A DNA stretch of 64,000 bases from Mobula hypostoma (taxonomy: Eukaryota). Position 1 is the first letter of the stretch; each line of letters opens with the position of its first letter. Below, in pieces: positions 5,122 to 56,284 of the stretch. The stretch spans positions 50,222,001 through 50,286,000 of the forward strand of contig NC_086097.1 in the NCBI RefSeq assembly GCF_963921235.1, read 5' to 3'. Made by a program: the position numbers and the translations under genes. The notes under the pieces were generated by a model. That model was not told the origin of the DNA and did not search any database. It saw nothing but the letters and a program-made list of their open reading frames with translations.

Positions 5122-6319
5122 AATTTTGGACATTCTACGCTATAGTTTCAAGAGCAGATCATAAGCTGTATAAACTGCAGTAACACTTGAAGCCTTCTAC
5201 CATAAACAAAGCTCAGAACTTCGACCACCTGGCAGGAACAGTAGAACCACCTGTAGTTCTCCCTCAATGTCACATACCGACCTAACTTGGACATATTTTG
5301 CAGTCTTTTTGTTGTCATTGGATTTAAATCCGGAAACCCCAATCCAATAGCATGCTGGGAGTACCACCAACAGAAGATTTCAACAATCAAGAAGGTGGTG
5401 CATCACTATTCTCTCAAGGGTGAGTAAAAGTTGGCACAAATGCTGCCACATCCAGAAAAATTAACAGAAGAAATTCAAGGCTGCAAGAGGTTGAGGCACA
5501 GACCAGCCATGATTTTATTAAATGGCAGATCACGTTCAGGGGGTTGCATTGCCAACTCCTACGTCTATTCATCATGCTATTTTGTTCTTGTATCCTTGAC
5601 TTGCACTTTTCATGAGGTATCATGTAATCAATTAACTAATCAGAACAGTTTTGCTTTCCTCTGTCACCTTTCTTAGGTAATGAGGTAGATTTTCCCAATC
5701 GAGTTGGCTGAGCTTTGGATCATTATGATTAAACAATTATAATGCTCTCACCTACTTAATGTAATTCTCAGGGATAGAAACCAGGATCTTTGGGGCTTCT
5801 CACTCTTAGTGAGATTGTTTACTTCTGGGAAATCCACATCTTTGATTGAACATTCATTCAATAGGTTCTCCACCATAATATCTTTTTGACATAGTCATGC
5901 AAAAGGTCCACCATTTCCATATACCTTGAAATATAAGAACTAGAACCAGAGGATATCCCTATGAAATTAGAAGGTTCAAAACAAGAGTTCAAGAAACCCA
6001 GAACTCTTGAATAACTTCAAACACAAAGTATTGCAACAGAAGTCAGTGACTCATTTGTAAGTTATTCAGATTATCAGAAATACTGGGAGAATTGCCAAAA
6101 AATACTGAATAGACATTATTTTGTAGCCTTTCTGAGGCACACACCCAAGTCAGTCTTGAGTTACCATAAGAAGACACAAATCATGCTCATTTTTCATTCT
6201 AATGTGTCTGTGAAAAATATATCAGTCTCAAACTCTCCTCAATGCTAACATGCTTTTCTGAGTGAAAAGATTATGAATTTCAGACTAACTACAAATTTGC
6301 AAGAAAAACTTAATTTGCT

Positions 6320-6610
6320 ACTTAATGCTGTGGTGCTGAGTGTGTGATTGCTCAGATGGGATATTGATCACTCCAAAATGTTGTGATTGCATGAAACCCC
6401 ACTCTGAAGCAAAGCTGGATATTTTTCTGATTCCTTGGGAAATGTTCATGGTCAATTACTCCTCCTATCTGTAATTGATTATCACCGCTTTTGGAGTTCG
6501 TATGCCTTTCTAGTGCTATTAAGCCCACATAATAGTAATATCTCTTAAAAACTAATTTAATTATGATATGCTTTGAGATATCTATGGACCCGATTGGACT
6601 CTAAATAACT
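6320..6610 (+). mobile_element. Possible very old DeuSINE-like remnant
   Basis: Weak resemblance by eye to the Deu-domain SINE body and an L2-type tail. Confidence 0.25.
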
Positions 6611-6801
6611 TTGTTCATACTGTGCCTAATGATAATCAGTATAGATGAGGATGGGTGAGTTGCAGGACATTGTGCAAGTGGAAAATGAATATTAGCACAT
6701 TTCACAATTAAGTATTTTTATATTTAAATGCTATTCGGACAAACCAGGATGCAGCATACTGCATACAGCAAGGTAGTGCAACCCTACACCAGAAAGGTAC
6801 A

Positions 6802-6920
6802 ACACACATCAAAGTTGCTGGTGAACGCAGCAGGCCAGGCAGCATCTGTAGGAAGAGGTGCAGTCGACGTTTCAGGCCGAGACCCTTCGTCAGGACTAAC
6901 TGAAGGAAGAGTGAGTAAGG
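6802..6920 (-). mobile_element. Minimal Penelope-type terminal-repeat insertion (~120 bp)
   Basis: Same terminal unit as other PLE copies here; flanked by GAAAGGTACA (6792-6801) and GAAGGGTACA (6921-6930), a 9/10 TSD. Confidence 0.8.
6861..6898 (-). ncRNA. Minimal type I hammerhead ribozyme motif, core intact
   Basis: UAGUC-CUGACGA-AGGGUCUCGGCCU-GAAAC-GUC^GACUG: stem I UAGUC/GACUG, both core boxes, GUC triplet, stem III reduced to the palindrome ACGU. Confidence 0.8.
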
Positions 6921-8002
6921 GAAGGGTACACCATGTGAAGAAAGAATGATGGATATAATAATAATAATAATAATAAGTACCAAATAATAATATGTCCCAA
7001 AGCAAGAGTATGAAAGTACTGTTCCCACAAACTGAAATGCTACAAAGAGTCTCTCTTTGCAGAACTCCACAGTGACATATTACATGTAGATGAAAGAGAT
7101 ATCAGTCAGTCACCAGAAGCATGTGTGGTTACCGTTGGCACTGTTGATAAGATAACTAAAACAACTGGGCCAGGAACACATGCACTCTTATGACTCAAGC
7201 TTTCTTTTTATTCTACTTCTGCTCTGGGAGTACCGTATGACCTCTGTCACCCACACTGTTCTGAAGCCAGGACAGAAAAATGCTATTTTTTTAATGCAGA
7301 ATTGGCTTATCAATTACAGATATTGACTATTTCTTAAGGTGTATATGTTTGAATTCCTTACTTTCAAGATCAATTGCCATTCACAATAGTGGTGTTATAA
7401 GTCAATCAAAACTCCAACCTGACAACCGATGATATTTTGAAGTTAGTAAAGCAATTGTCCCTTAGTTGTTGGGTGTGTTTCACATCCTTTTGTTATTCCT
7501 ATCTTATCTGTCTCTGGCACCTCCTATTGTATAAAGGGATATTATGTTTTAGGATGATCGTTCGAGAAAAGCCTCACTACAGAGGCTTCATTCATCTGAT
7601 TTGCTTACATACTGCTGCCGTCACCCCATCCTATCTTGTCTGCAGGAAGCAGAGGTGTCTCCAGTGGTCTCACTCTGAATACAAATGCCCCAAGATATCC
7701 TTGCCTGGATGTTGCCTTTAGCCCTTGTCTTACCCCAACTTCCAAATTACCAACTCTGATGGGAAGTATTCTAGAATATGGGAAAGCAGGAATAAAACTT
7801 GTATGAATAGCAAATACATATTGCTCTTGATCACATTTGTTGTGCAAACAGCTGCAGCAAAATTATCTGAACAGTCCACTTTGCACCTTCCCTGCATTAT
7901 CCTGGACTTAATATTGCATGTCTCACTCTCAGTTAATTTCTCTCCAAGATGGAGATAACTAACAGATGGGCCCCTCTGCACCACACTGCCCTCTGTCAGT
8001 AT

Positions 8003-12073: not shown

Positions 12074-12143
12074 TGCTAAATTTGGGACGGAGTAAATTGA
12101 TTGGGTCAAAATTCCGGAAAGAAAGAAAAGACAAACAGCAGAA

Positions 12144-13388
12144 ATGGAGGCTGAGGAAATTATAAAGGCGCTGACCTTGGAGGCATTAGAGGATGCCAGG
12201 AAAGCGGAATTGTTAGCTGTGGCCAAACGGTTGGATCTTGCTAAGGGGAAGTCGACAATGAGGAGAGAGGAGATACACAGAGCTATCATAGAGCACTATG
12301 TATCTAAAGGTGTGTTTCCCCAAGGCGAGCTGGAGGTGGTGTCTGTTGAAAAACCTGCCGGAGACGCAGTACAGGTGCAGCTTGAAAAACTGAGACTCGA
12401 GCACGAGTTCCAGGTATGGCAGTTGGAGCGAGAAGAGAAAGAGAGGGACAGACAGTTGGAGCGAGAAGAGAAGGAGAGAGAGTTAGAAAGGCAAGAGAAA
12501 GAGAAAGAGTTAGAAAGGCAGGAGAGAGAGAGAGAGAGACAGTTGGAGAGAGAAGAGAAAGAGAGGCAATGGGAGCGAGAAGAGAGATAGAGGCAGAGGG
12601 AAAGGGAATTTGAGCTGGGGAAGTTAAAGATAAGGGCCGAGCAGGGGCCCATGCCGAACCAAGGTGGAGGGTTCCGGGCAACCCGGGAGGTTAGGCTGGT
12701 TCCCACATTTGACGATACTGACGTGGATCGGTACTTTCTCCATTTTGAAAAAGTTGCTATAAGTCAGGACTGGCCGAGGGATAAGTGGGCTGTTTTGCTT
12801 CAGAGTGTACTGAAAGGGAAAGCCCAAGAAGCTTACTCAGCTTTGTCCGCGGAAGATGCCCAGAGGTATGAGGTGGTGAAAGAGGCCATCCTCAGGATTT
12901 ATGAGTTGGTCCCGGAGGCATATCGGCAGAGGTTCCGGAATGCGTGGAAGCAGTGGCACCGCACGTATTTAGAGTTTGCCCGTGAGATGCAGACATATTG
13001 TGAGAGTTGGTGCGCCTCGAAGGGGATAGAGGGGGATTATGACGGACTGCTACAGCTGATCCTGATTGAGCAGTTTAAAGGTTGTGTCCCTGAGGGTATG
13101 AGACCCTACCTAGATGAGAAAGAGGTAGCCACGTTAGCCGCAACTGCTAAGTTAGCGGATGAGTATGCGTTGACGCATAAAATGAAGTTTGCCCAGAGTA
13201 AAGGCTACCAGAAGGGTAGTCAGGACAGCGGGGAGAGTCCGCCAGAAAAGTCAGAAAGTAAGCCGGGGACTAGTGAGAAGGATAAGGTAGACCGGGAGCA
13301 GTCTGTTAGGAAGTCTCCTGGGGTCGTCTGTTATAATTGCGGGAAAGTCGGACACTTTGCGTCCAGGTGCTTTGCCCCAAAGAAGTAG
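12144..13388 (+). pseudogene. gag: Gag: N-terminal helical domain, E/R/K coiled coil, SCAN-like capsid, CCHC zinc knuckle; internal TAG at 12588-12590
   Basis: ORFs 12144-12590 and 12651-13388 share a frame; FLHFEKVA...W...LKGKAQEAY...PEAYRQRFR...LILIEQF...LADEY; CYNCGKVGHFASRC at 13329-13370. Confidence 0.88.
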
Positions 13389-14783
13389 AAGGGAAAAGGA
13401 AAAACGGCGATTTTGACTGGCTGTATCGAGCTGGTAAACGAACCGCTAGGGAAGGACAGGTCTGCCAAAGTTCAGGAAGGGCGCGAGAGGTTTATCTCGG
13501 CCGGATTGGTGTCGGTGAAGGAGGGGTTAAAACCAGTTCCAGTGCAGATCCGGAGAGACACGGGAGCGTGTCAGTCACTGATACTGAAGAGTGTATTAGA
13601 GTTTAGCTCAGAGACCCAGACTGGGGAGCTCAAGGTCAAAGGTATTGGAAAAGGGACGGAAGCCGTCCCTTTGCACCAGATACACTTACAAAGCAACCTG
13701 GTCTCTGGACTAGTCACGATCGGGGTGAGGCCCGAATTACCGATGAAAGGCGTGGAAGTCTTGCTCGGTAATGACCTCGCCGGGGGAAATCGTGTTCGAA
13801 GCAGTGAGATTGACAGGTCAGCCTGCCAGCATTGAGGCCCCGCCCATGGACTCACAGGTTCACCACGGGACTGCGGTAGTAAATTTAGCTGAGACGTTTC
13901 TGCCAGCCTTGTACGAGAAGGGGGTAGAAAGTGAAAAGAAGGAGTGTAGTGAGACAAGAGGTAGTGAGGGAGCTGGGACAGACGTAGCATTAGCCAGGAA
14001 AGAATTTGTGCAGGCTCAGGGGCGAGACGAGGGGCTGATGGTTTTGGCGGAGACAGCTCTCTCTGACACAGAATTAACAAGGGAACTAGTGGGCTATTGT
14101 GTGGAGGAGGAAGTGCTAAGGAAGAAAGGGAAGCCAAGTACTGCACCCGCAGATGAGGAATGGGGGGTGGTGCAAAAGAGTTATGGGGATGAGGTTTTTT
14201 ACCTGGCCCACAAGGTACCCCCCAGTGGACATTTTGCGGTGCTGGAGGAAACAGTTGGTGGAATCATGAAAGAGGTTTACCGGCTGCCCAGGAGGAAGGA
14301 TGTTATTGATTATGACCGACGCGAACTGAGACGGTCACAGGCTTTTGATATGCTAACAAACCTAGTCGGTGTTAGCGTGGAAATCAATGAAGCTAGGGTC
14401 CCCCTGATAAGAGAAAAAAACCATTTTGAAAAGATGAGTATGGTATCGACCAGATGGGAGAAGGCTATTGTTTTGGCCAGCTCTGCTGATAAGGTCTCTC
14501 CCTTAATCCCCGAACAAAGCGACTCTTTAGGAGAAGTAATTAAACGACTCGCACACGTGTGTTTGATTGTCCCGAGGTGATGCAAAGAACTGGGACGTTG
14601 GGTGGTGTTTGTTATACTAGGCCAGCCTAGCGAACAACACACATATAGAATGAGTAATTCAGTGACAAAAGGTCTGACGAACACAGAGGTGTGCATTGGC
14701 AATGTAATACGGCTGTCTGATGCCAGCTTTATAGTGAACCTTGAAAAAAATGAGTTCGGCCACACGAAGGTCACTTACCTGGG
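13389..14783 (+). pseudogene. pol: Degenerate pol: aspartic protease, integrase Zn-finger remnant, RT remnants
   Basis: RRDTGACQSL (DTG 13557-13565) and LLGNDLAG; frameshift near 13790; LAHKVPPSGHF 14203-14235; EQHTYRM, VCIGNV, VNLEKNEFGHTKVTYLG. Confidence 0.8.
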
Positions 14784-16390: not shown

Positions 16391-16414
16391 TTCAGTTCTG
16401 ACATGATTTTTTAA

Positions 16415-17540
16415 GACCATAAAACATAGAAGCAGCATTAGGCCATTCGGCCCATTGAGTCTGCTCTACCATTACATTACATCTGATTTAATTTCCCTCT
16501 CAACCCTATACCCCTCGTAACCTGTGACGCCCTTGCTAATCAAGAACCTGTCAAACTCTGCTTTAAATATACGCAATGACTTGGCCTCCACATCTATTTG
16601 TGGCAATGAATTCCACAGATTCACCACCCTCAGGCAAAAGAAATACCTCCTCACCTCTGTTCTAAAGGGATGTTCATCTACTCTGAGAGTGTGCTCCTTG
16701 GTTCTAGACTCCCCTATTATTGGAAACCTCCTTTCCTCATCCACTCTATCTGAGTGAGTGAGGCCGCCGTCGATCAGAGTCGACCATGGACGTTGCATCC
16801 AGCCTGGGCAGTACAGTATGGACAGCAAACTGTTGCCCATGAAGCAAACTCTCCCTCTCATGCAGCTGAAGAATCCAAAGGAATGGCAGAGAATGATACA
16901 ATTTGGTACCAACAGTGTCACGGGAGTTGCCAGTCAGTGATGAACTTTACGTACAACTGCCTTAGGGACTCCAGCTCTGGATTTTTCCCTCAAGGTGTAC
17001 TCCTGAAGCCATGAATGGGTATAGCCGCAAGGCAGCAGAGGTTCGAGATCAGAGTTTTCCTTCTCCTTAGTGAGTTGCCAACCACGGCTCAAGCCTCATC
17101 TGCCCGAAGCAACTGGTCTTAAGGCACCAGTAATCCACCTTTGCCCCTTCTCCTGTCATTAGGAATGGTTCCGCTGGACTTAGTAGCAATCTTAACATAC
17201 TCACATGTGAATGCCTTGGTTGTCAAAGGCTATTTGAGGCGCACGCCAATGGGAGCATTTAATAGGTAGCAGGAGCTTATCCCCATTACCACCTTCCGGC
17301 TATAACAAATTTAAGAAACTCTATCTAGGAATCCACGCTATCTAGGCAATTCTATAAGTTTCAATGAGATCACCGCCCCCTCCACCATTCTTCTAAACTC
17401 TAGTGAGTACAGACCAAAGCTATCAAATGCTCCTCATACGTTTCCTTTCAGTCAGGAAAGGGCCAAAACTGCTCACAATGCTCCCAACTACAATCTGACT
17501 CTTGACTTATGAAGCTTCGGCGTTACATCCATGGTTTTAA
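16415..17540 (-). mobile_element. CR1 3' fragment split by an insertion
   Basis: RVDEERRFPIIGESRTKEHTL...RVVNLWNSLP; CR1 resumes after 17318. Confidence 0.85.
16752..17317 (-). mobile_element. RTE-derived ORF-less non-autonomous element (~566 bp)
   Basis: TSD ACTCTATCT at 16743-16751 and 17318-17326; RTE 5'UTR-like GGAGAAGGAAAACTCTGATCTC; 3' end GGTCGACTCTGATCGACGG plus (CTCA)n tail. Confidence 0.7.
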
Positions 17541-19364: not shown

Positions 19365-22300
19365 TGAAGACAGCAACCTTTTCAATCAGGTCCGCACTCA
19401 AGATTAAAAAGGCAGAACGTCGTGGTAGTTTTTCAGAGTTGGAATGTGACAAATAATCGAGCGGGATTCATTAGAAAGAGCAAATAAAAATAACGCAAGT
19501 ACAAGCAGAGTGGCCATTGTTGTGAGTGGACCAGTGTTTGGAGTGGCTTTGGCTCATCAGACTTGGGCAGGGTGAAGTATTTAATAAGTTTTGCCTTTTT
19601 GTTCTTAATTCTCCATTCCTCGTCTGTTAGGGCCAGGTAGTGTAGTGGGAAAGGCTGCAAGGGCAGTATTTTGTACAGTGGGTGAGATGTGGGAAGTCTG
19701 GGAGACCCCCAGATAAACACATCTGCACCAGGTGCACCGAGTTGCAGCTCCTGAGAGAATGTATTAAGGAACTGGAGCTGCAGCTCGATGACCTTCGGCT
19801 CTTACGGGAGACTGAGGAGGTTATAGATAGGAGCTACAGGGAGATCATCACCCCTATGTTGCAGGAGACAGGTAACTGGGTGACTCAAGAGAAGGAAAGG
19901 AAATGCAGAGTACACCTGTGGCAGGTCCCCTCAATAATAAGTAGGCCACTTTAGATACTGTTGAGGGGAACGACCCACCAGTGGGTGCAACAGTGACCGA
20001 GTCTCTGGCACTGAGTCTGGTGCGGTGGCTCAGCAGTGAGGAGAAGAGGACTTCAGTGGTGATAGGAGATTCCATAGTCAGAGGTTCAGATTCTGTGGCC
20101 ACAATAGAGACACCCAGACAGTATGTTCCCTCCCAGATGCCAGGACCAGGGGTGTCTCGGATTGGGTCCATGACATAGTAAGGGGGAGGGTGAGCAGCCA
20201 GAAGTCTTGGTACATATTGGCACCAATGACATAGGTGAAGAGGCCCTGAAGAGAGATTTCAGGGAGCTAGGTAGAAAACTGAAAAACAGGACCTCCAGGG
20301 TAGTAATATCTGGATTGCTGTCTGTGCCACATACCATTGAGGGTAAGAATAGGATGATTTGGCAGGTGAATGCGTGGCTGAGGAACTGGTGCAGGGGGTA
20401 GGGGTTCAGATTTATGGATCATTGGGATCTCTTCAGGGGATGGTGTGACCCATACAAAAGGAATGAGTTGCACCTGAACTGAGGAGGTCCAATATCTTTG
20501 CTGGAGGGTTTGCTAGAGTTGTTTAGGAGGGTTTAAACTAATTTGGCAGGGGGGTGGGAACTAGAGTGATAGTACTGAGGATGAGGTGGTAGGTTTACAA
20601 ACAGAGGCAATGTGTAGTGACACTGTTAGCAAGGAGCGGATGCTGATAGGGCAAAATTGCAGATAACAGGATGAGTTGCAATATAAAAGGTGGACAAAAT
20701 TGTAAAGGGCTGAAGGTGTTATATTTGAATGTGCAGAGTATACAGAATAAGGTAGATGAATTTGTAACACAGTTAAACTTTGGCATGTGTGACATTGTGG
20801 GCATCAGTGAATCGTGGCTGAAAGAGGATTATAGTCAGGAACTTAACATCCAAGGCTATTCATTGTATCAAAAGGACAGGCAGGTAGGCAGAGGGTATGG
20901 CTGTATTGGTAAAAAATTAAATCAAATCTTTAGAAAGAGATGACATAGGATTGGAAGGTGTTGAATTGTTCTGGGTAGAGCTAAGGAACTGCAAGAATAA
21001 AAAGTCCCTGGAAGGAGTTCGATACAGACCCCCCAAACAGTAGCGAGGATGTGGTCTACAAATTACAACAGGAGAAAGAAAATGCAAGCCAAAAGGGCAA
21101 TGTAACAATAGTATTGTGGGACTTCAATTTGCAGCTAAATTGGGAAAATCAGGTTGGTGCTGGATTCCAAGAGAGAGAATTTGTAGAATACCTATGAGAT
21201 GATTTTTAGAGCACTTTATTATGTTTGAGCCCACAAGGGAGTCAGCCATTCTGGATTGGGTGTTCTGCAGTGAACTGGAATTGATTAGAGAACTTAAGGT
21301 AAAGGAACCCTTAGGGAAAGTCATCATAATATGATAGAATTCACCCTGCAATCTGAGAAGGAGAAGCTAAGGTCAGATGTATCCGTATTATAGAGAAGTA
21401 AAGGAATTTACAGAGGCATCAGAGAGAAGCTGACCAAAATTGATTAGAAAAGACCACTAGCAGGGATGATAGCAAAGCAGCAATGGCTGGAATTCTGGGA
21501 GTAATTCGGAAGGTGCAGGAAATATACATCCCAAAAAGGAAGATGTATTCTAAAGGCAAGATGGCACAACTGTGGCTAACAAAAGAAGTCAAAGCCAACA
21601 TAAAAACCAAAGAGATGTCATATAATAGAGCAAAAATTAGTGGGAAGTTAGAGAACTAGGAGGTTTTTAAAAACCAACAGAAGGCAACTAAAAAGAAGGT
21701 AAAAATGGAATACTAAGTAAGCTAACCAATAATATTAAAAAGGAAACAAAAGTTTCTTCAGATACATAAAGTGTAAAAGAGAGGCAAGGGTGGATATCAG
21801 ACTACAAGAAAATGATGCTGGAGAAGTAGTAATGGGTGGTAAGGAAATGATGAATGAACTATATAAGTATTTTGCAGCTGTCTTCACTGTGGAAGATACT
21901 AGCAGTATGCCAGAATTTCAAGAAAGTCGAGGGACAGAAGTGTGTGAAGTTACCATAACTAGAGAGAAGGTTCTTGGTAAACTGAAAGATCTGAAAGCAG
22001 ATAAGTCACCTGGACCAGATGGTATACACTGCAATTTCTGAAAGAGGTGGCTGAAGAGATTGTGAAGGCATTAATAATGATCTTTCAAGAATCAATTGAT
22101 TCTGGCATGGTTCTGAAAAAATGAAACATTGCAAATGTCACTCCACTCTTCAAGAGAGGAAAGAGGCAGAAGAAAGGAAATTATAGGCCAGTTAGTCTGA
22201 CCTCAGTGGTTGGAAAGAGTTGGAATAAAGGCAGTCTTTTCTGGTTGATTGCCAGTGACCAGTGATGTTCCACAGGGATCTATGTTGGGACGGGATCATT

Positions 22301-23250
22301 TTACGTTATATGTCAATGATTTGGATGATAGAATTAACGGCTTTGTGGCAAAGTCTGCAGACAATATGAGGATAGGTGGAGGGGCAGTTAAGTTTGAAGA
22401 AGTAGAGAGGCTACAGAAGGACTTAGGCAGATTAGGAGAATTGGTAAAGAAGTGGCAGATGGAATACAGTGGCAGGAAATGTATGGTCATGTACTTTGGT
22501 AGATGAAATGAAAGGGTAGACTATTTTCTAAATGGAGAGAAAATACAAAAAAAAACTAAGGTGCAAAGGGACTTGGGAGTCCTTATGCAGAATTCCCTAA
22601 AAGTTAATCTGCAGGTTGAGTTGGTGGTGAGGAAGGCCAATGTGATGTTAGCACTAATTTCAAGGGGATGTAATATTGATGCTTTATAAAGCACTGGTGA
22701 GGCCTCACTTGGAGTATTGTGAGCAGTTTTGGGCCACCTTACCTAAGAAAGGATTTACTGACATTAGAGAGGGTTCAAAGGAGGTTCACAAGAATGAATC
22801 TGGGCTTGAAAAGCTTTTAACAGCTCTGGGCCAGTACTCACTGGAATTCACAAGAATGAAGGCTGACCTTATTGAAACCTATTGAATGTTGAAAGGCTTT
22901 GATAGAGTGGATATGAAGAGGATGTTTCCTATAGTGAGGGAGTCTAAGACTAGAGGACACAGCTTCAGAATAGAGGGGAATCCTTTTTGAACAGAGATGA
23001 GGAGGAATTTCTTTCGTCAGAGAGTGGAGCATCTGTGGAATTTGTTGCCACAAGTGGCTATAGAGGGCAAGTCATTGGATATATTTAAGGCAGAAGTTGA
23101 TATATTCTTGATTGGTTAGGGCATGAAAGGATACAGAGAGAAGCCAGGAGATTGAGGCTGAGAGGAAAATTGGATCAGCCATGATGAAATGGTAGAGCAG
23201 ACTTGACAGGCCAAATGGCCTAGTTCTCCTCCTATATCTTGTGGTCTAAT
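19365..23250 (+). mobile_element. Near full-length decayed CR1 LINE (ORF1 Zn-finger/leucine zipper/SGNH esterase; ORF2 APE + RT)
   Basis: HICTRCTELQLL...LELQLDDLR; VVIGDSIVRG; VHIGTND; YLNVQSIQNK...GISESWL; KSPGPDG; SDVPQGSMLG; RPHLEYC; many stops and an internal RT deletion near 22217. Confidence 0.92.
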
Positions 23251-23379
23251 ATTTCTCCTCTGTTTCCACCATAAAAAATGTTTTTGGAATAATGACTGAA
23301 ATCCCAGCAAAGTCATTTGTACTCACCACCTATCGGAACTGCATTTGTCTCTTTTTCAAAAGACAGGTTCAGTGGGCTC

Positions 23380-24800
23380 CCTTGCAGAACAGTGTAAGGG
23401 GAGGTGCTGGACAAATTAAAATGTATGAAGGTAACTATATCTCCATGGTTAGGTATATCCAAGAACTTGAGAAACCCTGGATGAAATATACATCATCAGC
23501 CACAGGTGAGGTACCAGAGGACAAGAGGGGGAGTTTATTTCTACAGTACCTTTATTTAAGAATGGCTGCAAAGAAGAACCAGGACTATAACCAAGTAAGC
23601 CCAACATCTATAGCAGATAAAGTTACTGGAAGAGATTCTGACATATAAGGTATACAGTACATGTATTTGAAGCATAGTCAGAATAGCTTTATATGTAAAA
23701 GTTCATGTATCATAAATTTGAAGAAATCATGAAGGTCGATGGGGGCAGGGTGCTAGATATAGTCTATATGAACTTCAATAAGGCCTTGGATAAATTTCCA
23801 TACAGTAGCCTGTGATGGGAAGTTAAATTCCTTATGATCCAAGGAGAATTGGTTAATTGGATATACAATTGGCTTGATAGTAAGAAACAGAGGGTGATGG
23901 TGGAAGGTTGTTTCTCAGACTGAAGGCCTGTGAGCAATGGTGTTCCCCAAGGGTCAGTGCTAAGCCCATTACTTGACATCTACTTCAATGGTTTGAATGA
24001 GAGTATACAAGGCGTAGTGTGTAATTTTGCAGATGATACTCAAATAGCTGATGAAAGAGTGAAGGTATTATCAAGAATTACAGCAGAATATTGAGTAAGC
24101 AGCCGAGGAATGGCAAACTGCTTAATTTGGGTAAGTGTGATGTGTTGGATCAGAGTGGGACTTTCATGATGACTGGTGGGATACTGGGAAGTGTTGATCA
24201 ATAGAAGGACCTAGAAGTTCCCAAATATGGCTCCACAGGTAGCCAGGACAAGCTGGCCTTCATCAGTCAAGGCACTGAGTGTAGAAGTTAGGATTTGTTG
24301 CAGTTGTACAAGACATTAGTGAGGCGGCATTTGGAATATTGTGTTCAGTTTTGATCATCCTGCTATAGGAAATATGCCAGTGAATTGGAAAGGTTTACAG
24401 GTCAGGACTCAAAGAATGAGTTTTAGAGAGTGGTTCAGCAGGCTAGGTCTTCATTCACTGGAACGTAGAATGTAATCGTATAGAGGTGTGTAAAATCATA
24501 GACATGGTGCATGCACACTGTCTTTATCCGAAGGTTGAGCTGGAGGGCATAGGTTTATGGTGAGAAGAGAGAGGTTTAATAGGAGCTATTAAATATGTGA
24601 TCCACAGTGCATGCTGCCAGAGGGAGTGGTTAAGGCAGGTACATTAACAACACTCACACAACACTTGGGCAGGTACATGGACAGGAGAGGTTCAGAGGAA
24701 TATGGGCCAAATATGATCAAATGGGACAAGCTTAGATGAGAATGTTGGTCAGCCTGAAGCATTTTGGCAGAAGAACCTGTTTCTGTGCTGTATGACTATC
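23380..24800 (+). mobile_element. Older CR1 ORF2 3' part (5' piece probably at ~19110-19355)
   Basis: Degenerate VYMNFNKALDK, VPQGSVL, FADDT motifs; CTGTATGACTA tail. Confidence 0.75.
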
Positions 24801-25494
24801 AGCCTATGAATTTATGTTAATGCCTCTGCTGATTATTGTATGACACATGTCACACCCATCTCTAATTCTTTGATTTGTCATGTCCAATAATACAACTACC
24901 TTTTAGTGATATTTAAAAAGCATCTATCAATGTTTTTTCTGCCCTTTGTTATTTCTTAGTTCAGCCCAACTTGATTCTAATTCTGTGTCATGATCTGTCA
25001 AGCTAAGATCATTCATTGCCTCTGTAAAGATCCACTCCCTTATTAATTGTACTACACCACCTCTTTTCCTTTTGACTTCCCTTCTCAAATGTTGAACACT
25101 AGGGGTTGTTCGATTCAAGATTGTTTAATGTCATTTCCAGGACACAAATATAAAGGAGAATGAAACAATTGTTACTCAGGGTCTGATGCAGCACAGAAGA
25201 AAAACAATAAGATAGAGAATACAATAATAAAAAACACAATAAATATAAATGCATATGATAGGTTAATCCAAACGTAGCGTCACAACATCAGACACTGCTG
25301 CAGAGTTACAGCACTCTTACAGGCAGGCAGCTGAAAGATGAGGGCAATCACATACGTGAAAATGCACACATTCCAACCAATTGGGGCTTCTTTGTAATCA
25401 TATTTAACTCCCTTCCTTTTGTTCAGTCTTGTCAAGTCTTGATCGAAGCACAGTGATCAAAGCTCCCTGCTTATTTTAGTCCATGTTACAGAAA

Positions 25495-26348
25495 AGACCA
25501 TAAGATATAGGAGCAGAATTAGGCCATTTGGCCCATCGAGTCTGCTCTGCCATTTTGTCATGGCTGATCCATTTTCCCTCATCCCTAATCTCCTGCCTTC
25601 TCCCCGTCTCCCTTTATGCCCTGACTAATCAAGACTCTATCAACCTGTACCTTAAACACACATAAAGACTTGACCTTCACAGCTGCCTGTGGCAATGAAT
25701 TCCAGAGATACACCCCTCTCTGGCTAAAGAAATTCCTCCTAATCTCTGTTCTAAAAAGATGCCCCTCTTTTCTGAGGCTGTGCCCTCTAGTCTTAGACGC
25801 TCCCACCATAGGAAACATCTGCGCCACATCTGCTCTATCTACATCTTTCACCATTCGATAGGTTTCAATGAGGTCATTCCTCATTCTTCTGAATTCTAGT
25901 GAATACAGGCTCAGAGCCATCAAATGCTCTTCATATGACAAGCCTTTCAACCCTGGAATCATTTTTGTGAACCTCTTTTGAACGCTGTCCAGTTTCAGAA
26001 TGTCCTTTCTAAGATAAGGAACCCAAAACAGCTCACAGTTCTCCAAGTGAGGCCTCGCCAGTGCTTTATAAAGCCTCAGCATTACATCCTTGCTTTGATA
26101 TTCTAGTCCTCTTGAAATGAATGCTAACATTGCATTTACCTTTCTCACCCCAGACTCAGCCTGCAAATTAACTCTTAGAGAACCCTGCACAAGGACTCCC
26201 AAGTCCCTTTGCACCTCAGATTTTTGTATTTTCTCTCCATTTAGAAAACAGTCTACGTTTTCATTTCATCTACCAAGTGCATGACCGTACACTTCCCGAC
26301 ACTATATTCCATCTGCCACTTTTTTGCCCGTTCTCATAACCTGTCTAA
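25495..26348 (-). mobile_element. CR1 3' fragment
   Basis: 209 aa ORF QRDLGVLV...RPHLENC...LWNSLP; TCTTATGG tail. Confidence 0.92.
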
Positions 26349-26499
26349 AAAGATCAGTGATTTAGATAGATGCTGTTAGAGGAACAGTGCTAATTTAGTT
26401 CTAGGTTACTGGTTTTGAGCAGTTGTGACAGCCAATAAGAATAGTAAGTTAAAGTTAATGGTAAATCACTAATTCTGGAATCACAAAAGACTGCAGTAC

Positions 26500-29400
26500 T
26501 ATAAGAACATAGAACATAGAAATTTACAGCACACTACAGGCCCTTCAGCCAACAATGTTGTGCCGACCATGTAACCTACTCTAGAAACTGCCTAAAATTT
26601 CCCTAGCGCTTATCCCTCTATTTTTCTAAGCTCCATGCACCTATCTAAGAGTCTCTTAAAATACCCTATTGTATCCAATTCCACCATCATCACCAGCAAT
26701 GCATTCCACACACCCACCACTCTCTGTGTGAAAAACTTACCCCTGACATCCCCTCGGTACCTATTTCCAAACACCTTAAAACTATGCCCCCTCATGTTAG
26801 CCATTTCAGCCCTGGGAAAAAGCCTCCGGCTATCCACATCATCAATACCCCTCATCATCTTATACACCTCTATCAGGTCACCTCTCATCCTCCTTTACTC
26901 CAAGGAGAAAAGGCCAAGTACACTCAATCTATTCTCATAAGGTTCACCCTCTAATCCAGGCAACATCCTTGTAAATCTCCTCTGCACTCTCTCTATAACA
27001 TCCACATCCTTCCTGTAATGATGTGACCAGAACTGAACACAGTACTCCAAGTGGGGTCTGACCAGGGTCCTATATAGTTGTAACATTACCTTTCGGCTCT
27101 TAAACTCAATCCCATGGTTGATGAAAGCCAGTGCACCAGATGCATTCTTAACAACACTGTCAACCTGCGCAGCAGGTTTGAGTGTCCTATCAACACGGAC
27201 CCCAAGATCTCTCAGATCCTCCACACTGCCAAGAGTCTTACCATTGATATTATATTCTGTCTTTAAATTGGACCTACCAAAATGAACCACCTCACACTTA
27301 TCTGGGTCAAACTCCAACTGAACTCTGCCCAGTTTTGCATCCTATTGATGTCCTGTTGTAACCTCCGACAACCCTGCAGACTATCCACAACACCCCCAAA
27401 CTTTGCGTCATCAGCAAACTTACTAACTCATCCTTCTACTTCCTCATCCAGGTCATTTATAAAAATCACAAAGAGGAGGGGTCCCAGAACAGATCCCCGT
27501 GGAACACTACTGGTTACCGACCTCCATGCAGAATACGAACCATCAACCACCACCCTTTGCCTTCTGTAGGCAAGCCAATTCTGGATCCACAAAGCAAGGT
27601 CTCCTTGGATCCCAAGCCTCTTTACTTTCTGTAGGAGCCTTGCATGGGGAACTTTATCAAATGCCTTACTGAAATCCATATACACTACATCCACTGCTCT
27701 ACCTTCATCAATGTGTTTTGTTACATCTTCAAAGAATTCAATCGGGTTCTTAAAGCACAACCTGCCCTTGAAAAAGCCATGCTGACTATCCCTAATCAGA
27801 TTAGGTCTCTCCAAATGCCTATAACCCCTGCCTCTCAGGATCTTCTCCAACAACTTGCCCACCACTGAAGTCAGACTCACTGGTCTATAATTTCTGGGTT
27901 ATCTCTACTCCCTTTCTTGAACAAGGGAACAACATTTGCAACTCTCCAATCCTCCGGTACTTTTCCCTTCCCTATTGATGACGAAAAGATCATCGCAAGA
28001 GCCTCAGCAAACTCCTCCCTCACTTCCCACAGGACTCATCCAGTCCTGGTGACTTATCTAACTTAATGCTTTTCAAAAGCTCCAGCACATCCTCTTTCTT
28101 AATGTCAATATGCTCAAGCATTTCAGTCCACTGTAAGTCATTCCCACAATTGCCAAAGTCTTTTTCCCTGGTGAATACTGAAGCAAAGTATTCATTAAGT
28201 ACCCCCACAACCTCCTCCGACTCCATGCACACATTTCCACTATCGCACCTGATTGGTCCTATTCTCACATGGCTCATCCTCTTGTTCTTCACATACTTGT
28301 AGAATGCCTTGGGGTTTCCCTTAATCCTGCTCACCAAGGCCTTCTCATGGCACCTTCTGGCTCTCCTAATTCCACTCTTGAGTTCCTTCCAATCAACCTT
28401 GTAATTTTCTAGAACTCTAACAGTACCTAGTTTCTTGAACCTTTTGTAAGCTTTTCTTTTCTTCTTAACCAGATTTTCTACATACTTTGTACACCATAGT
28501 TCTTTCCCTGCCTCAATGGAACATACCTATGCAGAACTTCATGCAGATGTTCCCGAAACATTTGCCACATTTCTGCCGTGCATTTCCCTGAGAACATCTG
28601 CTCCTAATTTATGCTCCCAAGTTCCTGCCTAATATTATCATATTTTCCCCTACCCCAATTAAATGTTTTCCCAAACTGTCTGCTCCTATCCCTCTCCAGT
28701 GCTATGGTGAAGGAGATAGAGTTGTGGTCACTAACTCCAAAATGCTCTCCCTCCAAGGAGTCTGACACCTGACCAGGTTCATTTCCCAATACCAGATCAA
28801 GTACAGCCTCCCCTCTAGTTGGCTTATCTACATATTGCGTCAGGGAACCTTCCTGAACACACCTAACAGACTCCACTCCATCTAAACCCCTTGTGCTAAG
28901 GAGATGCCAATCAATATTAGGAAAGTTAAAATCTCCCATCACAACAACCTTATCATTATTGCACCGTTCCAGAATCTGCCTCCCTATCAGCTCCTCGATG
29001 TCTCTATTATTACTGAGGGTCTATAAAAAACACTCAGTAGAGTTATTTTCCCTTTCCTGTTTCTGACTTCCACACACATTGACTCAATAGACCATCTCTC
29101 CATGATTTCCTCCTTTTCTGCAGCCGTGACACGATCCCTAATTAGCAATGCCACGCCTCCACCTCTTTTGTCTCCCTCTCTGTTCGTCTTGAAACATCTA
29201 AAGCCTGGCACACTCAGCAGTCATTCCTGCTCCTGAGACATCCAAGTCTCTGTAATGGCCACAATGTCATAGTTCCATGTATTGTGTGCTGTGTGCTGGG
29301 GCAGCAGGCTGAGGGTGGCAGACACCAACAGAATCAACAACCTCATTCGTACAGCCAGTGATGTTGTGGGGATGGAACTGGACTCTCTCACTGTGGTGTC

Positions 29401-30889: not shown

Positions 30890-30990
30890 AGCACACACAA
30901 AATGCTGGAGGAACTCCGCAGGCCAGGTAGGATCAATGGAAAAGGGTAAACAGACAACATTTCAGGCTGAGACACTTCATCAGGACCTTC
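30890..30990 (-). mobile_element. Short Penelope terminal unit with decayed hammerhead motif
   Basis: CTGATGA-AGTGTCTCAGCCT-GAAA-TGTT on the minus strand (30951-30986). Confidence 0.7.
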
Positions 30991-31590: not shown

Positions 31591-32559
31591 CAGTAGGAAT
31601 CCCCTTCTGAACCATTAACAACCTGAACAAATGAGGATTAAAAATACAGCGGAGTAGAAGAAACAAGCAGATTACGATCTATGTTGTTGATAAGATGTTC
31701 AGTAGTTAGGCGCCTTACCAATTATATATATATTTTACAGTAATGTTCATTTATTTTGGGGATTCTTATTGTTGCCAACCCTGAAATACTTTTCAGACTC
31801 CAGGGAACTTATAATTGAATAGTATTCTATTTCTGCCCATACATTATGAATTCATAGTGTTCTTGTGAGAAAGGGAATCTCCTAGGTTAAAAAAGTATGG
31901 ATATTGTTTATATACACCTTAATCCATTTCATATGAACAAGAGAATATAGAAATCTAATGTAAAATAGAGTTACTGACCCACATTTGATATGCACCTTTG
32001 CTATCTGCACCATAACACAACCAATTTGTTGAGCACAAGGGAAGAATAATAATGAATTTATGTATATTATAAATTAGTTTAACGCAGGCCTGAAGTTTTT
32101 CTTCCTTTCTCCAAAATAATGTACCATGATGGGTTTAATGCAAAGGAGGAATTGTTGCTGAATAGTACTTTACTCAAAACATCTCGGACTTTAGTCGTTG
32201 GCACCTCACTACAACAATAATTAATGCAAAAAAAATGAATAGCAACATTTTATTGTTAGCTCTGGTTCATCTCTGCTTCTGTGCTAGAGCTAATGGATTC
32301 AAATCTCTCTCCAGAGACTTGAATACCAAAAAAAACAGGCTGACACATGAGACTGATGCTGCCTTTAAAGATTTCAGTTCTCCTGTTGAAGGTGGATGCA
32401 TTGCAATATTTAAAAGAAAAGCTGAGAGTTTATTCTCAGTAACTGGAAATATCATATCACCAGTCTTTCATCGCTGCTGGGTCTGCATCATAGAACTCCT
32501 GCCTGAAATGCATTTTTGGGGTACTTTTACCAGAATGACTGCAGTGGTTAAGGATATTA

Positions 32560-33556
32560 TTAACCCCACTTTTTTATTCTGACTTCTTCTCCCTTCCTTT
32601 CCAGTCCTGAAGAAGGGTCTTGGCCCAAACCATCGACAGTTTCATCTTTTCCATAGATGCTGCCAGACCTGCTGAATTCTTTCAGCATTTTGTGTGTGTT
32701 GCTAAAGAAAAAGAACGTTATCCTTGACATAATTGACTTTGGTGTATAAAATGGATCAGATGACACAGATCTGAGATTACAATCGCACAAAATTCTGGAG
32801 GAACTCAGCAAGCCAGGCACGTATCGATGGAGGGGAATAAACAATCAAAGTTGGGCCGAGACCCTTCATCATGACTGAAATGGAAGGGGACAGAATAAGA
32901 GGGTAGAGGGAGGGGAAGGAGAACCAGCTGACAGGTGAAAGGTGAAACCGGGTGGGAGGGGGGTGGATGGAGAGGGTCATGAAGTAAGAAGCTGAGAGGT
33001 GATAGGTGGAAAAATTAAAGGGCTGAAGAAGAAATAATGTAATAGGAAAGGTAAGTGGACCATGGAAGAACGGGCAGCAGAAGAGACACCAGAGAGAGGT
33101 GATGGGCAGGTGAGAAGAGTAGAGATAAGATTGCAACCAGAAAGGGGAATGGAAAAAGAAAGAAGGGGGAGAGGAGAGAAATACTGAAAGAGAAATTGAT
33201 GGTAATGCTGTCAGTTTGGAGGCAACCTAGAAAAATATGAGGTGTTACTCCTCCAACCTGAGTATAGCCTCATTATAGCTGAAGGGAAAGACATGTCAAA
33301 ATGGAAATGGGAAGTTGGTTGCATCTGCAGAAACTTACATTTTACAATAACACTTCAGAAAATTCCAAGTGGAAAATTTATAAGATGGTCACTAGGTGGC
33401 AGTAAAAGACAGTCTCTGAATTATCACAAAGGAGCGACTCTGCCGAGGCTGGAAATCCAAGCAGCACACACAAAATGCTGGATGAACCCAGCAGACCAGG
33501 CAGCATCTCTGGAAAAATGTACAGTCGGTGTTTTAGGCCGACACCCTTCGGCAGGA
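32560..33556. mobile_element. Cluster of Penelope terminal fragments (+ 32560-32703; - 32783-33320; - 33445-33556)
   Basis: Three copies of the hammerhead-GATGCTGCC-GCTGAGTTCCTCCAGCA unit, all with core mutations. Confidence 0.78.
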
Positions 33557-34129: not shown

Positions 34130-37100
34130 TACCGGAACAGGAGTGAGAGTGCTGAGGATGGGGTAATTGGTTTACAAACACAGACAGTGTATAGTGAGAC
34201 TGCAAGATGATGACAGGGCAAAGTTGCAATCAAGATGATGAGTTGCAATGTAAAAGGCAGAAAAAAATTGAAAAGGGTGAATACTAGGAATGAAGGTGTT
34301 ATATTTGAATGCCAGAGTGTGCAGAATAAGGTAGGTGAACTTGTAGCACAGTTACAGACTGGCATGTATGATGCTGTGGGCATCACTCAATCATGGCTGA
34401 AAGAAAATTATAACTGGGAGCTTACGGTAAATAAACCCCTAGTGGCAAGTGATCAAAATATAATCAAATCCACCCTGAAATTAGAGAAGGAGAAGAAAAG
34501 GTCAGAATTATCAGTATTATAGTGGAATAAAGGGAATTATAGAGGCGTGAGAAAGCAGCTGGCCGACGTTGATTGGAAGGAAACATTAGCAGGGATGACA
34601 GCAGAGCAGCAATGGCTGGAATTCTTGGGAGCAATTCGAAAGGCACAGGATTTATACATCCCAAAGAAGAAGTAGTATTCTAAAGGCAGGGTGATATAAC
34701 AATGGCTGACAAGAGAAGTCAAAACCAAAGATAGGGCATATGAAAGAGCAAAACTTAATGGGAAGTTAGAGGATTGGGAAGCTTTTAAAAACCAACAGAA
34801 GGCAACTAAAAAAGGTCATAAAGAAGGAAAAGATGGAATACAAAGGTAAACTTGCCAATATTTTTTAAAAGGATACATAAGGTTTCTTCAGATGTATGAA
34901 GAGCAAAAGAGAGGTGAGAGTAAATATCGGACTGCTGGGAAAATAGTGCTGGAGAGGTAGCAAGACTATAACACATGGGAGCAGAATTAGGCTATCCAGC
35001 CCATTGAGTCTGCTCTGCCATTTCATTATGGCTGATCCCAGATCCCACTCAACCCCATAAGTTCTCACCATATCCTTTGATGCCCTGACCAATCAGAAAA
35101 CAATTAACTTCCGCATTATCTATACACATGGACTTTGGACTTGGCCTCCAGCGCAGTCTGTGGTAGAGCATTCCACAGATTTACTACTCTCTGGCTCAAA
35201 AGATTCCTCCTTGTCTCTGTTCTAAAGGGTCACCTCTCAATGTTGAGGCTGTGCCCTCTAGTTCTGGATACCCCCATCAAAAGAAACATCTTCTCCATAT
35301 CCAACCTATCTAGTCCTTTCAACATTCAGTAGGTTTCAATGAGATCCCCTGGCATTCTTCTAAGTTCCAGTGAGTACAGGTCCAAAGCTGCCAAACGCTC
35401 CTCATATGTTAACTCCTTCATTCCTGAAATCATCCTCGTGAACCTCCTCTGGATTTTCTCCAATGAGAACACATCTTTTCTGAGATATGGTGCCCTAAAC
35501 TTTTGACAATACTCTAAGTGTGGCCTGACTAGTGTCTTATAAAGGCTCAGCATTATCTCCTTGCTTTTATATTCTATTCCCCTTGAAATAAATGCCAACA
35601 TTGCATTTGCCTTCTTTACCACAGGCTCAACCTGTAAATTAACCTTCTGGGAGTCTTGCACAAGGACTCCTAAGTTCCTCTGCACCTCTGATGTTTGAAC
35701 CTTCTCCCCTTTTAGATAATAATCCACACTATCGTTCCTTTTACCAAAATACATTATCATACATTTCACAACACTGTATTCAACCTGCCACTGTTTTCCC
35801 ATTCTTCCAATTTGTCTAAGTTTTGCTGCAATCATATTGCTTCCTCAGCACTACCCATCCCTCCACCTATCTTCATATCATCCACAAACTTTGCCACAAA
35901 GCCATCAATTCCATTATCTAAGTCATTGACAAACAATGTGAAAAGCAGCAGTCCCAAAACTGACCACTGAGTCACCGGCAGCCAACCAGAAAAGGCCCCT
36001 GTAATTCCCACTCGATGCCTCCTTAAGTAATGAGAAACAAGGAAATGGTGGATAAACTGAATAAGTATTTAGCATCCGTTTTCACAGTGGGGGGAGCTCG
36101 AGAGAGTCAGGGGGCAGAGTGTGTGAATTTGCCATCACTAGGGAGAAGGTTATTGAGAAGCTGAAGGATCTAAAAGACCTTTCAGTTTCCCCAGGGTTCT
36201 GAAAGAGATGACTGAAGAGATTGTGGAGGCATTAGTAACAAACTTCAAGAATCAATTGATTCTGGCATGGTTCTAGAGGACTCAAAAGTTACAAATGTCA
36301 CTCCATTCTTTAAGAAGGTAGAGAGACAGAAGAAAGGAAATTTTTCGCCAGTTAATCTGACTTCAGTGGTTGGGAAGATATTGTAGTCGATTGTTAAGGA
36401 TGAATTCTCAGGGTACGTAGAGACAAATGATAAAATAGGCCCAAGTCAGCATGGTTTCCTAAGGGAAAATCTTGCCTGACAAATTTCTTGGAATTCTTTG
36501 AAGAAATAACAAGCAGGATAGACAAAGGAGAATTGGTGTATGTTGTATACTTGGATTTTCAGAAGGCCTTTGACAAAGTGCCACACATGAGGTTCTTTAA
36601 CAAGTTAGGAACCCGTGGTATTACAGGAAAGATACTAGCATGGATAAAGCGTTGGCTTATTGGCAGGAAGCAAAGAGTGGGAATAAAGGGAGCCTTTCCT
36701 GGTTGGTTGCCAGTGACTAGTGATGTTCCACAGAGGTCTCTGTTGGGACGACTTTGTTTATGTTGTATGTCAGTGATATGGATAACCAATTCGATGACTT
36801 TGTGGCCAAGTTTGTGGACTATACAAAGAGAGGTGGAGGAGCAGATTATGTAATTTTAAGGAAGCAGAGAGACTACAGAAGGACTTAGATAGATTAGGAG
36901 AATGGGCAAAGAAGTGGGAGATGGGATACAGTGTTGGGAATTGTATGGCCATGCACCTTGGTAGAAGAAATAAAAGCATAGATTATTTTCTAAATGGAAA
37001 TAAAATTCAAGAAACCTGAGGTGCAAAGATTCCCTGAATGTTAATTTGCAGTTTGAGTCACTAGTGAAGAAGGCAAATGTGATATTAGCATTTATTTCAA

Positions 37101-37690
37101 GAGGATGAGAAAGTAAAAGCAAGGATGTAATGCTGAGGCCTCACTTGGAGAATTATGAGCAGTTTTGAGCCCTTTATCTAAGAAAGAATGTGCTGACATT
37201 GGAGAGGGTTTAGAGGAGGTTCACAAAAATGATTCCAGGATTGAAAGGCTTGTCATTTGAGGAACTGCTGATGGCTCTGGCCCTCTACTCACTAGTATTC
37301 AGAAGAATAAGAGGTGGCCTCATTGAAACGTATAAAATGTTGAAAGGCCTCATAGAGTGGGTGTGGAGAGGATGTTTCCTATGGTAGGAGAGTCTAAGAC
37401 CAGAGGACACGGCTTCAGAATAGATGTAAGTCCTTTTAGTACGAAGATGAGAAAGGATTTCTTTAGCCAGAGAGTGGTGAATCCATGGAATTCATTGCCA
37501 GAGGCGTCTGTGTAGTCCAAGTCAGATGTTGATAGGTTCTTGATTAGTCAGAGCATGAGGGGATATGGAGAGAAGGCAGGAGATTGGGGCTGAGAGGAGA
37601 AAATGGATCAGCTATGGTAAAATAGTTGAGAAGACTCAATGGGTCAAATGGCTAATTCTGTTCCTATATCTCATGGACTAAGGGTCTTCT
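34130..37690 (+). mobile_element. Decayed CR1 ORF2, split by an opposite-strand CR1
   Basis: APE motifs from ~34300; LEFFEEIT...[11 protein letters not shown]...SDVPQ; text GCTGGAGAGGTAG resumes as AGTAATG at ~36026. Confidence 0.88.
34965..36022 (-). mobile_element. CR1 3' fragment nested in CR1
   Basis: 169 aa ORF QRNLGVLV...RPHLEYC...GDLIETY. Confidence 0.88.
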
Positions 37691-37864
37691 AATATATGGT
37701 CACAATAACTTGTACAATGAATAACTAGGAATACCTGACAAATACAGATTCAATAGGGGCTTCAAATGAGGACTTGGATAAATAGTTAAAGAAAAAGAAA
37801 GTGCAAAGATACTGTGAAAGAACAGAGAATTGAGTCTGACCGGACATTGCATATTGTTTACAAA

Positions 37865-38320
37865 AAGGTGTAATGTATGAGGAGTGTTTGACAGCTCTGG
37901 GCCCAAACTTGCTGGAGTTTAGAAGAAACAGGGGAGCAGGGGGTCTTATAAAAACCTACCAAATATTGAAGGGACTGGATAGAGTGGACATGGAGAGGAT
38001 GCTTCCAATAATAGGGGAGTCTAGGACCAGAGGACACAGGCTCAGAGTATAAAGACGTCCCTTTGGACCAGAGATGAGGAGGAATTTCTGTAGCCAGAAG
38101 GTGGTGAATCTGTGACATTCATTGCCTTAGGTGGCAGTGGAGGGCAAGTTATGGGTACATTTAAAGCAGTGGTTGTTAATTCTTGATTAGTTAAAGCATC
38201 AAAGGTTATAGGGAGAAGGCAGGAGAACGGGGTTGAGAAGGAAAATAAATCGGTCATGATCAAATGGTAGAGCAGACCCAATGGGCCAAATGGCCTAATT
38301 CTGCTCCTATGTCTTATTTT
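37865..38320 (+). mobile_element. CR1 3' fragment
   Basis: GESRTRGHRL region and CR1 3' UTR. Confidence 0.85.
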
Positions 38321-38694
38321 ATGATAATTATTAAATAAAAAATACCTGCCTATTATTCTCTGAAAACATGATTATGTTGAATGGATCTCTTAAGGAGATG
38401 AGCTACTTGACAAGCTTCTATCCAATATTATACATATTGTTACGCACGAGTAATTACGTAATGTGTTCTCTTCCTATTTCTGAAAACAAGCACAAACATT
38501 AGGTAAAAACATTCAAATGTTACATGGAGGACGGTCAGTTTGTTCACAGTTATTAGGGAAATCTATAACAATAGAAAGTTTCCTGTTTATTCTCAATTCT
38601 AGTGTGAGACTATAGATAAGGAATGTAGTAATCAGCCTTACCAAGCAGTGTAGCAGGAAATTGAGAAATAAATTTAAATTTTGACAGCTGACAC

Positions 38695-39428
38695 ACAAGT
38701 GTGAGGTTGGATCACTCTGGGTGCCGAGCTGATTTGAAGAGTTTGAGAGCAGCTTCAGGCCGGGCAGTGAAATCTTGGGCCGGAGCGAGTCGCTGGGTGG
38801 TGTGGTCCAAGCCTGGAGCCTTTCGTTGCAGCCGGGTCCTAGTGCAAGATACGATTCACTGTTTGGACAATTTAAACGCTGGCCCAGATTGGTGGCGAGA
38901 GCCGACATTGCTCACTCTCTGTGATGTTCACTCCTCTCTCCAGGGTGCTGGAGTTTTTTGCTGTTCCATTATTTGGTCAGTTTAAACAGCAGCCCACATA
39001 GAGTGAAAAGACGTGTGTTGGGATCCGGGACTAGAGTCGATTTTGTTCATTCTCTATGATGGTCACTCCTCTCTCCAAGGCACTGAGGCTACGAAGACTG
39101 TCCTGGCTGCTGTGCTCTGTGCCCGCTAATATGATGAACTGATAAGTGAGACTTTGGGCCTACTCCAGACTGCTCTGGGATTTGGATCTGAGGACTCCAT
39201 TTTGGTTCAGAATGTTGTTGTTTGCTTCAACTGTTTGCATGATCTGTATTTTTTTTATTTCTCTTGCACATCAAGTGTTGATATTTTATTTTTATTCTTA
39301 TTCTTTTTTTTCATTAATTGGGTTATTTTGGGTTTCTTGCTTTGTGGCAACCTGTGAGCAAGCAAATCTCAAGTTTGTACAACTTTTACATTCTTTGATA
39401 ATAAATGTACTTGAATCTTGAATCTTGA
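38695..39428 (+). mobile_element. ORF-less CpG-rich element with Rex1-like 3' tail
   Basis: Internal ~45 bp direct repeat (from ~38908 and ~39043), T-rich 3' region, AATAAA and (TTGAATC)n tail. Confidence 0.65.
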
Positions 39429-56068: not shown

Positions 56069-56284
56069 TGAATACTGTCTAATCTGTTGAGTATTTCCAT
56101 TGTCTGGCGTAATCTCATATTTCAAACTTCCACATTGTTTAATGCGATTGTTCTGATCAGACTCATGCGGAAAGATAAATGTGATACGATGAGATTGGAC
56201 ACATTTCTGAACGTGGCTGGAATTCGTGACACTTGTGTTTCAAATGCTGGAACCCTGGGCTGGATGACCCAGTGAAATAGTAAC

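Follow-up and report, generated by a model that had tools for sequence, protein, structure and literature searches.

A short Penelope-like insertion carrying a minimal hammerhead motif in a cartilaginous fish

Introduction

Minimal hammerhead ribozymes (min-HHRs) occur in the pseudo-LTRs (pLTRs) of metazoan Penelope-like elements (PLEs), and the G10.1-C11.1 pair is listed there as highly conserved (Cervera and De la Pena, 2014, PMC4209133; this and the other published systems are cited for the passages concerned). In the same work, no cleavage was seen with a single Schistosoma min-HHR and only a low level with dimers. PLE insertions have target-site duplications (TSDs) of 8-10 bp and microhomology at their junctions (Arkhipova et al., 2013, PMC3846280) and are frequently truncated at the 5' end (Craig et al., 2021, PMC8557442), the latter study also assigning the CX2-5CxxC linker before the GIY-YIG domain to Neptune/Nematis. 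For Poseidon, internal initiation at two adjacent sites yields an optional tail and insertion proceeds from unprocessed RNA, while the PLE hammerhead depends on assistance from protein and is not required for insertion in vitro (Frangieh et al., 2024, PMC11167929). Among vertebrates, Neptune and Poseidon were found but not Hydra or Naiad, and the passages concerned list no Nematis (bioRxiv 10.64898/2026.07.22.740005). In the literature we found no description devoted to a min-HHR of cartilaginous fish or to a ray family of this kind, although such a family may be catalogued in Repbase, Dfam or supplements.

Here, we analyse a short insertion bearing a min-HHR motif within a 64-kb stretch of DNA, referred to throughout as the window. 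A first-pass annotation had offered two readings of it, either an extreme truncation of a Penelope insertion or a discrete, ribozyme-only mobile unit of about 120 bp.

Results

The hammerhead motif

Motif reading and folding place a minimal type I hammerhead at 6861-6898 of the minus strand, with the following parts:

6898-6894 with 6865-6861, minus strand: stem I, four Watson-Crick pairs and one terminal U-G
6893-6887, minus strand: core CUGACGA, read from the sequence
6886, minus strand: extra unpaired A ahead of stem II, from the best stem II fold
6885-6874, minus strand: stem II, 4 bp with loop CUCG
6873-6870, minus strand: GAAA core strand, read from the sequence
6869, 6868, 6867 and 6866, minus strand: C, G, U and C, read from the sequence
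6870-6867, minus strand: stem III, the loop-less palindrome ACGU (A15.1-C-G-U16.1), read from the sequence
between 6866 and 6865, minus strand: predicted cut, from the hammerhead layout

The conserved min-HHR core (C3-A9, G12-A15.1 and U16.1-H17) is present in full, and stem I has the 4-5 bp that close a type I layout. The first-pass annotation had described an intact minus-strand minimal hammerhead with all core nucleotides, a 5-bp stem I and a loop-less ACGU palindrome as stem III. The core and the palindrome were borne out, and stem I does have five pairs, albeit with U-G as the terminal one. 'Intact' holds for the presence of core and stems but not for the composition of stem II, in which two pairs are G-U, one of them the closing pair 10.1-11.1 that is normally G-C. 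Across nine copies of the family in the window, the flagged one included, this closing pair is G-U in six and G-C in two, and the G-U presumably arose from an ancestral G-C by a CpG-type change.

The core pattern alone is at chance level in the window (one match against 1.38 expected), and an Rfam scan of the 64 kb returned no match at E<=1. A full hammerhead descriptor, composed after the motif had been seen, matches the window once, at 6861-6898, and was matched in 1 of 1000 shuffles in relaxed form and in 0 of 1000 in strict form; the flagged copy is the only one of the nine to pass it. These shuffle counts, together with the contig evidence of insertion given below, rule out an artefact or a chance motif. 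Stem I is paired in 78-89% of cells across the window copies, whereas covariation over the stems amounts to one compensatory cell, a score reached by 113 of 500 shuffles in an alignment of only 10 decayed rows. The predicted fold of the whole insert as a monomer lacks the hammerhead (z +0.87), and cofolding two copies gave an extended duplex, not the active dimer shape. Judged by its sequence, the hammerhead of this lone copy, with no tandem partner and with a G-U closing pair, is most likely inert; by analogy with the published motifs, that of the parent element probably requires dimer formation or protein help in order to cut.

Boundaries of the insertion

The insertion and the features in and around it are as follows:

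6800..6922, minus strand: 123-bp 3' end of a Penelope-like retroelement, from its pseudo-LTR, truncated on the 5' side and lacking the optional tail (loose contig ends, window copies)
6792..6801, no strand: target-site duplication, left copy (10-mer match; contigs of organisms C and D stop exactly at 6801)
6921..6930, no strand: target-site duplication, right copy, with one mismatch (10-mer match; a loose-end class starts behind 6922)
6896..6922, minus strand: pyrimidine-rich stretch ending in YAG at stem I (sequence; same arrangement in older copies)
6816..6832, minus strand: 5-bp hairpin near the element's 3' end (arms kept in most older copies; present in only some predicted folds)
6956..6976, plus strand: (TAA)7 microsatellite in the flank (sequence)

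The 10-mers at 6792-6801 and 6921-6930 are identical at nine of ten positions and enclose 119 bp, in agreement with the first-pass annotation; site pairs equally good arose in 523 of 200000 random trials. Homology to the family, which defines the element itself, covers 123 bp (6800-6922) and overlaps each target repeat by 2 nt, so that there is a 2-nt microhomology at both junctions. Positions 6800-6801 also match the element's 3' end, consistent with microhomology used in priming, and 6921-6922 also fit the family sequence, consistent with microhomology at the 5' junction.

Loose contig ends pile up at 6800 (685 contigs in organism A, run X1; 459 in organism B, run X5), and 6800 is the family's fixed 3' end. 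Behind 6919 and 6922 there are two loose-end classes with different consensus sequences and an agreement of 0.63-0.80, a value that we assume to be the share of the commonest letter. Past 6922 the family sequence agrees at 0.76-0.80, where about 0.32 is expected of unrelated flanks, and the contigs that continue beyond the copy's 5' end number 127+175 in X1 and 88+191 in X5. Since the family runs on past 6919/6922, the copy comprises 6800-6922 and is truncated at its 5' end. The limit at 6922 is inferred from the separate loose-end class, in evidence that comprises 24 of more than 1300 loose-end entries, among which a smaller peak of unique flank at 6922 is possible. The motif with which the loose ends continue has no match within three mismatches in the 64-kb window; by eye, the continuation resembles an older tract.

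The insert has kept its CpGs, as had been noticed before, with an observed/expected ratio of 0.58 against 0.29 for the window. Summed contig depth is about 1e7 in the element and 14 in the flank, figures that are sums of depth and not copy numbers. The pyrimidine-rich stretch at 6896..6922 is similar in sequence to a 3' splice site and, as a weak match, to an initiator, YYANWYY being common (12 per kb).

A Neptune/Nematis-type family

The window has eight other ends homologous to the insert, all more diverged than the flagged copy, at about 74-82% identity over the parts aligned by BLAST (two align only briefly and were placed otherwise). Without tails, they measure about 95, 97, 125-130, 140, 305, 317, 370 and 540 bp. 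A ninth BLAST match, at 60716, was an unrelated 18-mer and was dropped. The copies at 33462, 48257 and 50953 carry tails beyond the shared 3' end, so that the family has the fixed 3' end with an optional tail of 30-40 bp that marks an endonuclease-bearing (EN+) PLE. TSDs of 10, 14 and 11-13 bp were found for three copies, and none that convinced for the other six of the nine tested.

Two of the eight copies are contiguous upstream, on the same strand, with DNA homologous to a GIY-YIG C-terminus, a link that comes from older subfamilies about 20% diverged from that of the flagged copy. One remnant (60736-61149, with X at stops) matched 860 proteins at E<=0.001 with HMMER, the top two being 59% identical and named from a stingray genome, with others from skate and whale shark. 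Of nine proteins scanned, four had RVT_1 together with GIY-YIG, the GIY-YIG of those four falling below Pfam's cut-off. The CX2-5CxxC linker is present in the homologues P0003 and P0004 as well as in the full-length matches, and decayed in the window remnant. The 64-kb window holds no intact RT/GIY-YIG open reading frame, and Pfam found nothing meaningful on two remnants; a word-based search among longer proteins gave no match, although HMMER did find relatives, and viral, prokaryote and metagenome collections scanned with DNA patterns gave 0 matches.

The subfamily of the flagged copy is a younger one, with about 80% identity to the other window copies, and its diagnostic 3' end is nearly absent in organism C (depth 32, against 3.6e5 in organism D, in bin 6772-6815). 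The insert is thus the 3' end of a very abundant Neptune/Nematis-type PLE of cartilaginous fish. Since no Nematis is listed for vertebrates, the clade is likely Neptune rather than Nematis. The core features of the motif and the copies linked to GIY-YIG support the connection to Penelope minimal hammerheads that had been drawn from the motif at the outset.

The window also contains composite PLE insertions at 51750-52433 and 60363-61424, made of head-to-head inverted pieces and GIY-YIG remnants in a layout described for PLEs. At 32550-32780, two family copies face each other tail to tail with about 70 bp between them; the one of 140 bp lacks a direct TSD, but, by eye, 11 bp of its left flank reappear in inverted orientation immediately beyond its 3' end. 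On the same strand, the closest family copy found within the window is 24 kb from the insertion and decayed.

Orthologous sites in relatives

Contigs covering 6200-7500 came from 4 of 23 listed runs, one per organism (A-D), with a flank divergence of 1.8% for organism B, 4.4% for D and 6.0% for C. In organism C, a contig of 1441 letters bridges the site, aligning to 6211-6801 and 6985-7216 with 45 letters between the aligned parts where the window has 183. In organism D, a contig likewise stops at 6801; depth arithmetic has it resume at 6986, with 40 letters for the window's 184. The shortfalls are 138 letters in C (129+9) and 144 in D (129+15), 129 being the insert plus one copy of the repeat; the 9 and 15 extra missing letters correspond to whole TAA units and can be put down to a change in length of the microsatellite. 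The site is therefore empty in organism C and, by this arithmetic, in organism D, and so the insertion postdates the split from both.

In organisms A and B, contigs with unique flank extend 25-26 letters into the element at both junctions. This falls below the bridging rule of 31 letters, with the same pattern in both, and the insertion appears to be common to B, the closest relative; it probably predates the A/B split. The prediction that related species would hold an empty site came true in the two more distant relatives. The suggestion that the insert is young holds in a relative sense only: it is recent enough to be missing from C and D, but appears to be common to B at 1.8% divergence.

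A possible preferred 5' boundary

Short copies are over-represented in the family, five of the nine window copies measuring 140 bp or less. Contigs that break behind 6896 number 127 in organism C and 91 in organism D; their long loose parts have an agreement of 0.33-0.35, against 0.32-0.33 expected of unrelated flanks. Two of the eight other window copies (33462-33556 and 30890-30986) start at the equivalent of 6896, within 1 nt of the edge of stem I, and have TSDs of their own (14 bp and 11-13 bp) with 4-9 unassigned letters; the flagged copy starts 26 nt beyond. Because of the excess of short copies and the apparent pile-up at 6896, truncation does not seem to be simply random, which suggests that the family has a preferred 5' boundary at 6896, one not used by the flagged copy.

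We tentatively consider, as a possibility that we rate well short of even, that part of the short copies form a defined, hammerhead-headed class of about 97 bp (6800 to 6896). A transcription start or a splice acceptor at the YAG would fix the 5' edge of this class, reverse transcription running off that end would turn out ribozyme-only inserts in large numbers, and the flagged copy would be a neighbour longer by 26 nt. In D. virilis Penelope, an intron ends at helix I (PMC4209133). If genuine, a boundary at 6896 would account for the large excess of single min-HHRs over full elements, and the RNA start of the PLE could be located from genomic data alone.

Separately, 3 of the 12 joints listed for run X5 re-enter the element at 6866 or 6867, at most 1 nt from the predicted cut. 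Such joints could be template jumps onto RNA ends cut by the ribozyme, or alignment trimming at a mutated CpG.

Neighbourhood of the insertion

A short inverted repeat with a 6-bp stem (6749-6764) occurs 30 bp to the left of the insertion site, and about 200 bp to the right of the insert another high-copy repeat (7124-7500) has a summed contig depth of 1e2-2e4 in all four runs. Long open reading frames with a CCHC knuckle and a protease-like motif (12096-14580, plus strand) look like a remnant of what we take to be a Gypsy-type LTR retrotransposon, and the many LINE reverse-transcriptase fragments at 16408-17450, 21290-28526, 34134-43382 and 50089-53021 are presumably CR1-like, to go by their appearance. 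The PLE at 50912-52433 sits within a LINE fragment region. At 56250-56650 (plus strand), a CpG-rich open frame that ends acidic and then arginine-rich is, by eye, possibly the 5' exon of a host gene or a CpG island.

Discussion

We believe that the flagged copy is very probably a dead-on-arrival, 5'-truncated insertion of an endonuclease-bearing PLE of the Neptune/Nematis type in a cartilaginous fish, probably a ray. On the model of published PLE biochemistry, an RT/GIY-YIG protein from an intact copy elsewhere would have cut the target with a 10-nt stagger, and reverse transcription, primed at the fixed 3' start at 6800 through the 2-nt microhomology, would have stopped early, after 123 nt. 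The 5' end would then have been joined through the other 2-nt microhomology, leaving the 10-bp duplication. With the hammerhead only 60-100 nt from the 6800 start, even short copies will nearly always include it, as a passenger. Because the scissile bond falls within the insert, the RNA template was uncut, or re-ligated, at the ribozyme; likewise, the retention of the YAG stretch means that the template was not spliced there.

Thus, of the two readings offered by the first-pass annotation, the extreme Penelope truncation is supported by the continuation of the family past 6922 and by window copies whose lengths range from about 95 to 540 bp. The other, that of a discrete, SINE-like unit or monomeric retrozyme of about 120 bp, non-autonomous in that it would be transcribed by itself but copied by PLE enzymes, is improbable. 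A clean TSD with an empty site and the abundance of short copies (5/9 in the window) would suit such a unit, and both pLTR-derived retrozyme monomers and non-autonomous PLE derivatives have been published. However, it finds no support in the flagged copy, since the loose ends continue past 6919/6922 (0.63-0.80) and beyond 6922 reach 0.76-0.80 rather than the roughly 0.32 of unrelated flanks. Moreover, none of the other window copies has its 5' end at 6922, the locus has neither a tandem arrangement nor a tRNA gene, and the cleavage site does not define the ends, as it would in a retrozyme monomer.

A solo pseudo-LTR, left by recombination between two direct repeats of a longer, partially tandem insertion, would look identical, TSD included, and partial tandems are the normal PLE layout, with solo pLTRs reported. 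We nevertheless hold this to be very unlikely, given that it needs an extra event, that the short junction pattern is common to organisms A and B and that short copies are abundant without such recombination. That the host has exapted a functional ribozyme under selection at this locus is barely credible: the flagged copy is the one window copy in nine to pass the full descriptor, but youth explains its intactness, two relatives have an empty site, the whole insert is predicted to fold (z +0.87) without forming a hammerhead and the older copies have decayed with no covariation above shuffles.

As a truncated PLE insertion, the flagged copy illustrates, in datable form, the spread of minimal hammerhead motifs through a vertebrate genome by short Penelope insertions; it combines an empty site in relatives with a template uncut at the ribozyme. 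The insertion could be used as a presence/absence marker among rays. What is known of these ribozymes is unchanged by it.

Set against the min-HHRs of PLEs (PMC4209133), the flagged motif agrees on all core features compared except for the closing pair, G10.1-U11.1 here and a conserved G-C there, and its stem II has 4 bp where that of the Schistosoma min-HHR has 7-8 bp. Motifs of this kind were already described in 2014, and the flagged copy is not a new stand-alone ribozyme element. The non-LTR retrozymes (bioRxiv 10.64898/2026.07.22.740005) are similar in being pLTR-derived and non-coding and in having a type I hammerhead, and the passages concerned report one from a chondrichthyan. In contrast to their definition by tandem units with a ribozyme in each, the locus has a single, TSD-flanked copy, and no tandem array was found there; its ends are a PLE 3' start and a truncation point, unlike those of the retrozymes. 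Poseidon of Anolis carolinensis (PMC11167929) shares the two fixed 3' ends, with and without a tail, the hammerhead shortly upstream of them and insertion from uncleaved RNA, but belongs to another clade, and its open reading frame starts inside the hammerhead. In the flagged copy the core reads ACG at the N7 position, so that there is no start codon there. The last comparison is with the Neptune/Nematis EN+ PLEs (PMC8557442; PMC3846280). While the flagged copy differs from these in consisting of the last 123 bp only, with no coding DNA, its homologues have the same C-terminal GIY-YIG with a CX2-5CxxC linker, and the likeness extends to the 5' truncation, the optional tail of 30-40 bp, the inverted 5' pieces, the TSDs of 8-10 bp and the microhomology at the junctions.
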